A stretch of 28,326 nucleotides of DNA from Acidimicrobiales bacterium (GTDB lineage Bacteria; Actinomycetota; Acidimicrobiia; Acidimicrobiales; CADCTF01): assembly GCA_046596815.1 (NCBI GenBank), contig JBKJLU010000197.1, positions 1 to 28,326 on the forward strand. The letters are read 5' to 3'. The position numbers and the translations under genes are program-made. Below are positions 9,499 through 16,385 of this stretch, one piece after another. The notes below the pieces were generated by a model. That model saw only the letters and a program-made list of their open reading frames with translations, was not told the DNA's origin and made no database searches. Within the stretch, counting starts at the first letter, position 1. The number at the start of each line of letters is the position of its first letter.

Positions 9499-10575
9499 TC
9501 ATCCGAGCGAGGGATGTCCACGCCGGCAGCGCCAGAGGCGCACCCGGCCGATGTCCTTCAGGGTGCGGGCGCGGAGCCCCCGAAAGGCGTAACGACCGTC
9601 GTCGATGAGGGCGTCGTGCACGGTCTCGGACACCACGACGGCGCCAGGGATGGCGATGTTCACCGTCCGGCTGGCCAGGTTGACGACGGGCCCGTAGTAA
9701 TCGCCCTCGCGTGCGAGCACCTCACCGGCCGCCAGGCCGACCCGCACATCGGAGAGCAACTCGTCGTCGGCATAGGCCTCCGAGAGCGACAACGCCGTCT
9801 CGACGGCCGCGCCGATGTCCTCGACCACGAACATCACCTCGTCGCCGATCATCTTGGCCACGCGCCCTCCGTGAATGGCCACCTGATCGAAGGCGAGGGT
9901 CTCGAATCGGCTGACCACCTCGGCCAACTCGACGTCGGAGATCTGCTGGCTCAGCGCGGTGTAGCCCACCAGGTCGGCGAAGCCCACGGCGAGCTGGACG
10001 GTCGGGCGACCCGATCGGTCGTCGGCCATCAACGCCCGACGACTGGCGGCCTGCAGGTGGCGACGCCACACGTAGTCGAGCAACCGTGACTGGGTTTCGA
10101 GCGTTCTGTCGGCCGACATCGTGAAGAGGTCCCGCTCGAGGGGACGACCCTGTCGTGCCCGCTGATCACTGCTGCGCACCATGGCCTCGGCGATCCGGGC
10201 GAGCGACGATCCGATCACCCGAGTCAATTGCATCGAGACGTCCACGCTGGTGAAGCCCATCGTGAGCATGGCGTTCACCGTTGCGAGGGCCTCGACGTCG
10301 GCGTCATTGAACATGCGGTCGTCGTCGCCGACGTCCGGGAATCCCAGCGCCCGCCAATAACGCTGGGCGAGCGTTCGATCGATGCCGACCGACTCCGAGA
10401 GTTCCGCGGGGGTGTACAAGCCCGGACCCGGGAGTGCGGCTGCAGCCACGGCCAGAAGACTCTCGAGGCCGTTGTCGCGGGCACGACGGATCTCATCGGC
10501 GGCGACGCCCCATTCGACGAGGCGGGCATCGGCCTCGTTGCGCAGGACTTGCTCGTCGTCCCCGGGCGAGCTCAG
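9499..10575 (-). CDS. Class III adenylate cyclase with N-terminal regulatory domain (Rv1264/Rv2212-like architecture)
   Basis: Motifs VGFADLVGYT, KMIGDEVM (Lys for ATP specificity), DYYGPVVNLASR; the canonical catalytic residues are present. First canonical start is GTG 10449; the proposed start is CTG 10575, overlapping the upstream stop. Confidence 0.92.
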   Translation of the reverse strand: MSSPGDDEQVLRNEADARLVEWGVAADEIRRARDNGLESLLAVAAAALPGPGLYTPAELSESVGIDRTLAQRYWRALGFPDVGDDDRMFNDADVEALATVNAMLTMGFTSVDVSMQLTRVIGSSLARIAEAMVRSSDQRARQGRPLERDLFTMSADRTLETQSRLLDYVWRRHLQAASRRALMADDRSGRPTVQLAVGFADLVGYTALSQQISDVELAEVVSRFETLAFDQVAIHGGRVAKMIGDEVMFVVEDIGAAVETALSLSEAYADDELLSDVRVGLAAGEVLAREGDYYGPVVNLASRTVNIAIPGAVVVSETVHDALIDDGRYAFRGLRARTLKDIGRVRLWRCRRGHPSLG

Positions 10576-14316: not shown

Positions 14317-15048
14317 ATGGAACCCACGACTGATCTGCCAACGCCGGCGCGCGCCCTCGCCATCGCCGCTCATCCCGACGACGTCGAGTTCGGGGCGGGC
14401 GCCACGCTGGCAAAGTGGGCCGCCGACGGGTGCCAGATCTTCCACCTCATCTGTACCGATGGGGCCAAAGGCTCGTGGGACCCATCCGAAGATCAGGCAC
14501 GGTTGGTAGCGACGAGGCAGGAAGAGCAACGGGCTGCGTCACGCGCCCTCGGAGGTACCGGGGAGTGCATCTTCCTCGGATGGTCGGACGGCGAACTCGA
14601 GTCCGGACTCCGCCAACGGTGGGAGGTCGCGTACTGGATCCGGAAGTGTCGCCCCGACGTCGTCCTCGGCCACGATCCCTGGCGGAGGTATCGATTGCAT
14701 CCCGACCACCGCAACGCCGGTTTCCTCGCCACCGACGGCATCGTGGCCGCGCGTGATCCCCACTTCTTTCCCGAGCAGGCCATCGCCCACCACCGACCGA
14801 CGACCCTGCTGCTGTGGGAGGCCGAGGAACCCGACCACGTCGAGTCGGTGGCCGGGTTCGAGACGCGCAAGGTGGCCGCGCTTCTCGCCCACGCCAGTCA
14901 GTTCGAGACGACGATGTCGATCGAGGACGCCGCTTCGGGTGACCAGGTGACGGCATTCCGCGAGCGGATCGAACGTCGACTGGCCGAGCACGGGGCCATC
15001 GCCGGCGTTGCCCTCGGCGAGGCCTTCAAAGCGATGCGCGACCTCTAG
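14317..15048 (+). CDS. PIG-L/LmbE family deacetylase
   Basis: Motifs AIAAHPDDVEFG, CTDGAKG, RQEEQRAA, RPDVV, HPDHR; ATG 14317, 13 nt after cofC. Confidence 0.9.
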   Translation: MEPTTDLPTPARALAIAAHPDDVEFGAGATLAKWAADGCQIFHLICTDGAKGSWDPSEDQARLVATRQEEQRAASRALGGTGECIFLGWSDGELESGLRQRWEVAYWIRKCRPDVVLGHDPWRRYRLHPDHRNAGFLATDGIVAARDPHFFPEQAIAHHRPTTLLLWEAEEPDHVESVAGFETRKVAALLAHASQFETTMSIEDAASGDQVTAFRERIERRLAEHGAIAGVALGEAFKAMRDL

Positions 15049-15060
15049 GACCAGAACAAA

Positions 15061-15088
15061 ACGGAGGGGGCCCGTGGGCCCCCTCCGT
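15061..15088. terminator. Intrinsic terminator hairpin between convergent genes
   Basis: Perfect 13-bp inverted repeat ACGGAGGGGGCCC-GT-GGGCCCCCTCCGT, followed on the minus strand by TTTGTT. It lies between the PIG-L and H1-like stops. Confidence 0.8.
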
Positions 15089-15111
15089 GCACATCGTTCA
15101 GAAAGGCCGAG

Positions 15112-15555
15112 TCAGCGCTTGGTCGCCTTGCGGGCGGCGGTAGCTCGCTTGGCCGGAGCCTTACGGGCCGTCGCCTTCTTGGCGGTGGCCTTCTTGGCCG
15201 GAGCCTTACGCGCGGTCGCCTTCTTGGCGGGAGCCTTACGCGCGGTCGCCTGCTTGGCGGGAGCCTTACGCGCGGTCGCCTTCTTGGCGGTGGATGCCCG
15301 CTTGGCCGGAGCCTTACGGGCGGTCGTGGCCTTCTTGGCCGGGGCCTTCTTGGCAGCCGTCGCGCGCTTGGCCGGGGCTTTCTTGGCGGTGGCCTTGCGG
15401 GCCGTTGTCTTCGCCGCCTTCTTGACCGTGCTCTTGGCGGCCGAGGCCGCCTTCTTCACGGTGCGCTTGGTTGCGGTCGCCGCCTTCTTCGCCGTCGCCT
15501 TCTTGGCGGTGGCCTTTCGTGCGGACGGTGCGGCCTTCTTGGCTGCAGGGCTCAT
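15112..15555 (-). CDS. Histone H1-like Lys/Ala-rich nucleoid protein (147 aa)
   Basis: Built from [10 protein letters not shown] repeats using only M, S, P, A, K, R, T, V and Q, with no acidic or aromatic residues. ATG preceded by GAAAGG. Confidence 0.75.
15201..15290. repeat. Tandem 30-bp repeat x3 within the H1-like gene
   Basis: GAGCCTTACGCGCGGTCGCCTTCTTGGCGG at 15201, 15231 (one mismatch) and 15261. More degenerate copies flank it. Confidence 0.9.
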
Positions 15556-15579
15556 TGGTGGCGTCTTGCCTTTCGCTCG

Positions 15580-15984
15580 CTACTTCTTCTTGGTGGACTT
15601 GGTGGCCTTTTTGGCCGGTGCCTTCTTGGCTGCGGTCGACTTTGCAGTCGTAGCGGCCTTCTTTGCCGGTGCTGCCTTCTTCGCGGGTGACGACTTCTTG
15701 GCGGCGCTCTTTCCATTGAGCGTCGTCTTGAAGGCAGAGCCCGGGGAGAATCGGACGCCCTTGCTTGCTGCGATCTTCACGGGGGCGCCGGTCTGTGGGT
15801 TACGGCCCATGCGCGCCGTGCGCGACGTCGGGTTGAACGTCCCGAAGCCGAGAACGGCTACACGGTCACCACTCTTGGTCGCATCCATAACGGCATCGAC
15901 GAAGGCATTCAGCGCGCCCTCTGCCTGGCGCTTGTCGAGTCCGGCCCGCTGGACCATCTCGTCGACGAGTTCACCTTTGTTCAC
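15580..15984 (-). CDS. hup: HU family DNA-binding protein with Lys/Ala-rich C-terminal tail (HupB/HupS-like)
   Basis: MNKGELVDEM...GDRVAVLGFGTF...RMGRNPQTGAPVKI...VRFSPGSAFK, then an AKK-rich tail. SD AGGAGG lies 5 nt before GTG 15984. Confidence 0.95.
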   Translation of the reverse strand: MNKGELVDEMVQRAGLDKRQAEGALNAFVDAVMDATKSGDRVAVLGFGTFNPTSRTARMGRNPQTGAPVKIAASKGVRFSPGSAFKTTLNGKSAAKKSSPAKKAAPAKKAATTAKSTAAKKAPAKKATKSTKKK

Positions 15985-16028
15985 CGCCACCTCCTGGCGT
16001 TGTTGGGGAAGTTGAGGAAGTTGTTGCA

Positions 16029-16057
16029 ATGAAAGAGGTTTTGCGCGGTGAGGTCAA
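16029..16057 (-). promoter_or_regulatory. Housekeeping-sigma promoter for hup
   Basis: Minus strand TTGACC (16057-16052), a 17-nt spacer, then TTTCAT (16034-16029), about 45 nt upstream of the start. Confidence 0.5.
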
Positions 16058-16087
16058 GCACTCTCCGCCGTCGCGTCAGCCCAGAAG

Positions 16088-16149
16088 CCTTGCGCTACAA
16101 GGGTTTCGGAAAGCGAGATGCGGTGGATCCCTTGTTCTGTAAGGGTTTC
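16088..16149. promoter_or_regulatory. Pair of imperfect palindromes CCTTG-N5-YAAGG(GTTTC), 42 bp apart
   Basis: CCTTG-CGCTA-CAAGGGTTTC (16088-16107) and CCTTG-TTCTG-TAAGGGTTTC (16130-16149), in the hup divergent intergenic region. Confidence 0.55.
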
Positions 16150-16154
16150 AGGCC

Positions 16155-16385
16155 ATGAGCGACTTACCCGATGGTCGATACGACGTCATCGTCGTCGATG
16201 CAGAAACATTCGACGAGACCACCATTCGCATCGAGTTGGCGATGGTCGACGGTGACGCGCGCGGTGATGTCATCACCATTCGCGGTCCGCGTCGCGCGTC
16301 GGATCCGATCGCGCTTCTCGGACTTCCCGGTGTTCTCATCGTGGAGAACGGCGTGCCTTCGTTTCACGTGGAGCGGGGTGCATGA
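16155..16385 (+). CDS. Small conserved hypothetical protein (76 aa)
   Basis: MSDLPDGRYDVIVVDAE...IRIELAMVDGDARGDVITI...DPIALLGLPGVLIVENGVP is a beta-rich sequence resembling small proteins I recall from Acidimicrobiia (not searched). Confidence 0.65.
   Translation: MSDLPDGRYDVIVVDAETFDETTIRIELAMVDGDARGDVITIRGPRRASDPIALLGLPGVLIVENGVPSFHVERGA

Follow-up and report, generated by a model that had tools for sequence, protein, structure and literature searches.

The window analysed here (the whole stretch of DNA, 28,326 nt, from an uncultured soil bacterium of the order Acidimicrobiales) contains a gene for an HU-family nucleoid protein (hup) which ends in a TAG codon and is followed, after exactly 24 stop-free nucleotides, by the in-frame ATG of a 147-codon ORF encoding a histone-H1-like polycation. 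This layout had been pointed out in the original prediction and is confirmed by the sequence. It raises the question of whether the TAG is an amber codon that some ribosomes read through, a scar left by the splitting of an ancestral long hupB, or simply the end of one gene in front of another. Based on the comparison of related loci, it is very likely that hup and the H1-like ORF belong to one bicistronic operon as distinct genes, that each is initiated independently, and that the frame they share is neutral.

Anatomy of the hup locus

The features of the locus, all of which are found on the minus strand, are as follows.

15990..15995, minus strand: Shine-Dalgarno (SD) sequence of hup, AGGAGG, 5 nt before the GTG, by direct reading of the sequence
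15580..15984, minus strand: hup, HU-family nucleoid protein of 134 aa; GTG start at 15984-15982, TAG stop at 15582-15580
15556..15579, minus strand: intercistronic spacer of 24 nt, stop-free in the hup frame, in which it reads RAKGKTPP
15574-15569, minus strand: GAAAGG, ribosome-binding site of the H1-like gene, inside the 24-nt spacer
15112..15555, minus strand: stand-alone gene for the H1-like polycation of 147 aa; ATG at 15555-15553, TGA stop at 15114-15112
15182..15290, minus strand: 30-nt tandem repeat within the H1-like gene, 3.6 copies, 94% alike (Tandem Repeats Finder), encoding a decapeptide repeat
15061..15088, minus strand: predicted intrinsic terminator just past the H1-like gene, a 12-bp GC-rich stem followed by a T-rich tail

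The product of hup is a member of the HU/IHF family. It scores 95.6 bits with the Pfam profile Bac_DNA_binding (PF00216; cut-off, 22.4; E-value, 2 × 10−27), and the match spans residues 1–90 of the protein and positions 1–90 of the 90 in the profile. The 90-aa HU fold is followed by a basic tail of about 42 residues, composed of K, A, P, S and T and ending in KSTKKK. The H1-like protein is rich in K, A, P and T, and K, A and R together make up about 73% of it. A hypothetical product of read-through at the hup stop would thus comprise 134 + 1 + 8 + 147 = 290 residues. Among the neighbouring genes, Pfam analysis recovered gpsA and cofC, as had been proposed earlier, along with a gene for a PIG-L-family deacetylase.

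In the region 14900-16300, the predicted terminator at 15088-15061 is the sole terminator-like site. As none is found between hup and the H1-like gene, the two are assigned to one operon. Folding of the RNA around the hup/H1-like junction revealed no notable structure.

The same genome encodes a second HU paralogue (contig C327, locus L002, 1021-1479, minus strand), a protein of 152 aa that is 44% identical to the HU of the window. It has its own fused tail of the AKKA type, and no H1-like gene is located downstream of it; the genome therefore has both a fused-tail HU and a split pair.

Spacer and reading frame among relatives

For comparison, hup orthologues were collected from 40 relatives together with the DNA that follows them, and a second sample was taken as an even draw of 300 genomes of Acidimicrobiales. 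HU orthologues were found in 40 of the 41 related genomes, all of them starting with VNKGEL or VNKSEL. In total, 95 distinct HU loci were compared, 90 from Acidimicrobiales genomes and five from metagenome contigs. A Lys/Ala-rich gene lies directly downstream of hup on the same strand at 45 of the 95 loci, which are spread over many Acidimicrobiales families.

According to the original prediction, some ribosomes decode the TAG at 15582-15580 and continue through the spacer, giving a 290-aa HU–H1 fusion, in effect a long-tailed HupB, so that one locus yields three nucleoid proteins and tunable chromosome compaction. Such a product would resemble the two-domain HupB of mycobacteria (PMC5676037). 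Conservation of the downstream frame, which is a mark of programmed read-through, was not observed. At the 45 tandem loci, the H1-like gene is in frame with hup in 19 cases, shifted by +1 in nine and by +2 in 17. With the genus of the window set aside, 39 tandem loci are distributed 13/9/17 over the same three states, an in-frame share equal to the one third expected by chance, and the original estimate that a frame coincidence has a one-in-three chance agrees with this share. When each genus and spacer state was counted once, by hand, the distribution was about 10/7/12.

Outside the window's genus, the spacer varies from 2 to 99 nt. On the HU tree, the frame changes from one sister genome to another, with spacers that are one or a few nucleotides apart (21, 21 and 20 nt in one family, 14 versus 15 nt in another, and 18, 19, 20 and 22 nt in a third), and a single genus was found to contain both 14- and 18-nt spacers. 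Three of the in-frame long spacers hold a further in-frame stop. In the nearest outgroup (G069), whose HU core is 79% identical, hup ends in TAA and the spacer is 23 nt long, which argues against read-through. It had been proposed to look in relatives for either an in-frame spacer of 24 nt or a sense codon in place of the stop; the spacer proved to vary out of frame, a result named in advance as refuting read-through, and among the lineages sampled none has a sense codon at this position or a fusion of the two genes fixed in this way.

Within the genus of the window, the picture is more uniform. All six genomes keep the exact 24-nt, in-frame, stop-free spacer, and so do four metagenome populations. 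This is the main point in favour of read-through and a point against the operon reading, as the same constancy would also be expected if the fusion mattered. On the other hand, in another genus all three genomes share a spacer of 8 nt, which is out of frame; constancy of the spacer at the level of a genus is therefore normal and uninformative on frame. Five of the six genomes have TAG as the hup stop, while the sixth (G002) has TAA, which speaks against amber read-through. The fifth spacer triplet is AAG, CAC, GAT or AAA in the genus, varying at its first and third positions in ways that would radically alter the encoded residue (K, H or D), while GAAAGG is invariant. Such variation is not what a translated linker under selection would show.

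GAAAGG is also present at most of the tandem loci of other families, 8–13 nt from the ATG. The ATG of the H1-like gene and its N-terminal motif are kept in more than 25 genomes regardless of the frame relative to hup; across families, the protein usually starts with MSP(A/T).KKAAP. The C-terminus of HU, KSTKK(K/R), is likewise conserved across many families. The conservation of the SD sequence, the ATG and the N-terminus, whatever the frame, indicates that translation of the H1-like gene starts independently of hup, and the earlier suggestion that the internal SD permits a free H1-like protein is borne out. Since in two thirds of the lineages the H1-like gene could be expressed in no other way, independent initiation appears to be the ancestral and general mode.

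Several lineages have an HU of 91–97 aa without a tail (loci L009, L010, L015, L017 and L148; genomes G012, G011, G008, G010 and G056). At these loci, a GC-rich spacer of 91–99 nt, predicted to form strong hairpins (−21 to −36 kcal/mol), precedes the H1-like gene, and TAGCGAGCGAAAGGC, a relic of the old hup stop plus SD, is retained at the end of the spacer in G012 and G008. Contig C78 of G055 carries two pairs of hup and H1-like genes, at 215-619 and 9613-10017 (L121 and L120), about 9.4 kb apart and both with a 14-nt spacer.

A search of genome contigs with a DNA pattern combining the SD and MSPAAKKA returned 10 loci, seven of them from duplicates of genomes already sampled, and no further relatives. 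The other three are unrelated: two are Thermoleophilia proteins that merely start with MSPAAKKA, and one is a small gene for a polycation that follows a WhiB-like gene. When metagenome contigs were searched with HU, the matches listed comprised distant HUs alone (at most 53% identity) and no additional members of the genus.

The TAG codon and its decoding

The window is contig 224 of a fragmented metagenome-assembled genome (453 contigs, 78% complete), in which a TAG could arise as a sequencing or assembly error in one long hupB, or mark such a gene as a recent pseudogene. This explanation is refuted with near certainty, because five other genomes of the same genus, dozens of other genera and contigs from four independent metagenomes have the stop, SD and ATG as well. 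A check of the reads at 15580-15582 had been called for: four soil metagenomes, belonging to four studies, have Logan contigs that cross the junction, and every one of them shows the TAG and the spacing of 24 nt without change.

The sole variant of the junction among the four metagenome runs is 15566 T>A (plus strand, run X5), which converts the spacer triplet AAG to ATG and creates an extra in-frame start three codons before the H1-like ATG. In each of the four runs, contigs are broken or mis-joined at 15148-15290 of the window, in the array of 30-nt repeats of the H1-like gene, which suggests that the repeat number varies among strains, as it does in Chlamydia Hc2 (PMC2848022). In G005, which belongs to the same genus (L003 and L039), the H1-like ORF extends over more than 250 codons and its AKK frame slips to a PRRR frame within the repeats, owing either to a real frameshift or to a consensus error in the tandem repeat.

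In 874 long, high-GC3 ORFs of this genome, TGA is used as the stop in 68%, TAG in 23% and TAA in 9%, and the commonest context of TAG is TAG-C. TAG is thus an ordinary stop in this organism, which weighs against its being recoded at hup. No stop-reading anticodon (CUA, UUA or UCA) was found by Aragorn among the 48 tRNAs of the 78%-complete genome, and a suppressor tRNA could be encoded in the missing part.

The hup genes of the 45 tandem loci end in TAG (25), TAA (13) or TGA (7), that is, in TAG or TAA in 38 of 45 cases; of the hup genes without an H1-like partner, a larger share ends in TGA (20 of 50). TGA is generally the leakiest of the stop codons. The under-use of TGA in tandem hup would, if anything, point to efficient termination, as a trend only, given that the loci are phylogenetically related.

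The junction of a product in which TAG is read as Q (residues 112–165) was compared with 5.8 billion proteins, and no match with an E-value of 0.01 or less was obtained; this is a weak negative, from a search that scored just the 8000 candidates sharing most words with a query whose words are low-complexity.

Taken with the spacers scattered over all three frames, the switching of the stop among TAG, TAA and TGA and the lack of a detected suppressor tRNA, these results make a functionally used or programmed amber read-through highly improbable. The sole likeness of the locus to known cases of programmed read-through is the open in-frame extension past the stop; here, neither the frame, nor the identity of the stop or a leaky context, nor the junction peptide is conserved, and no recoding signal was found. 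The making of three nucleoid proteins from a bacterial chromosomal gene by this route, with tunable compaction as its outcome, is accordingly left without comparative support for its third product. Some near-cognate read-through is unavoidable at any stop, and HU is abundant; a trace of the HU–H1 fusion is probably present in the cell. We give very little credence to a narrower version, in which the genus keeps its 24-nt in-frame spacer for the sake of a minor fusion made by low-level near-cognate decoding, a long-tailed HupB alongside free HU and the H1-like protein.

Under the preferred reading of two separate genes, a single transcript would start upstream of hup and end at the terminator (15088-15061). 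Translation of hup would terminate normally at its TAG, releasing the short-tailed HU, and the H1-like cistron would be translated from its own GAAAGG and ATG, possibly with the aid of translational coupling over the short gap. Both proteins are expected to be expressed in this uncultured organism, as far as can be told from their genes: a short-tailed HU and a free, intrinsically disordered, Lys/Ala-rich polycation. By analogy with the fused C-terminal domain of mycobacterial HupB, the latter presumably binds DNA non-specifically. The length and sequence of the 24-nt spacer would be held within the genus by the ribosome-binding site it contains, with the shared frame being neutral rather than selected for read-through.

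Origin of the gene pair and known counterparts

In mycobacterial HupB (Hlp, MDP1) and in Streptomyces HupS, an HU fold is likewise combined with a Lys/Ala/Pro-rich sequence of the PAKK/KAAK type that resembles the tails of histones H1/H5, and HupB of M. smegmatis needs its PAKK/KAAK-rich C-terminal domain to bind DNA (PMC5676037). The HU of the window differs from these proteins in that only about 42 tail residues, followed by the TAG, are fused to the HU fold, in place of the C-terminal domain of about 100 aa or more that characterises the two-domain HupB/HupS type; most of the basic sequence (147 aa) is assigned to a second protein, whose gene has an SD and an ATG of its own. In all sampled relatives with the pair, a stop codon separates hup from its partner.

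It is possible that the pair arose long ago when a two-domain hupB was split by a nonsense mutation combined with an internal start in the tail, and that the in-frame state is a relic of this event, although we regard such an origin as doubtful. Several observations fit it: single long-tailed HUs (up to 239–266 aa), with no H1-like gene downstream, occur in other families of the order; HUs with a partner tend to be shorter than those without (median 137 versus 151 aa); the two ORFs are alike in composition; and other Actinobacteria typically have a two-domain HU (PMC5676037). If the fission took place, however, it must be old, as both KSTKK[KR], the C-terminus of HU, and MSP..KKAAP, the N-terminus of the H1-like protein, are shared by many families, and no junction-like motif was found in any sampled long HU tail. 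The low-complexity tails are not reliably alignable, and the HU tree, built on 92 columns, forces at least seven changes of state and has too little resolution to place the root, to order the events as fission or fusion, or to count origins. The pair could just as well stem from a duplication of tail-coding repeats or from the capture of a pre-existing polycation gene, and a fusion in the opposite direction, or such a capture, fits the pattern of long and short HUs as well as fission does. Because the frames are randomised among relatives, the frame shared in the window's genus is not evidence for fission.

Other bacterial polycations offer a second comparison. Chlamydia Hc2, the H1-like protein of Burkholderiales and Pseudomonas AlgP are also small to medium-sized, repeat-built, disordered and Lys/Ala-rich, and AlgP has been described as histone-H1-like (PMC9239181). 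The H1-like protein of the window shows no demonstrable homology to any of them. Of the two Hc2 models, Pfam HC2 (PF07382) gave 51.3 bits (cut-off, 40) and NCBIfam NF038052 gave 23.1 bits (cut-off, 135); the equivalog model for the Burkholderiales protein (NF038053) gave 31.6 bits (cut-off, 80), and all of the NCBIfam H1-like models stayed under their cut-offs. The match to Pfam HC2 is compositional, a product of low complexity, and no evidence of homology. To our knowledge, none of these three proteins is encoded in an operon directly behind hup, and nothing on an operon of hup and an H1-like gene was met in the literature looked over, which was aimed at other questions.

The "split HupB"-like layout of the original prediction, with a short-tailed HU and a free polycation from a separate gene, thus stands. 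The basic domain that is fused to HU in mycobacteria and Streptomyces is here a free protein encoded in the hup operon, and the locus is relevant to the function of the HupB tail in that the tail appears, in these Acidimicrobiales, to act in trans.
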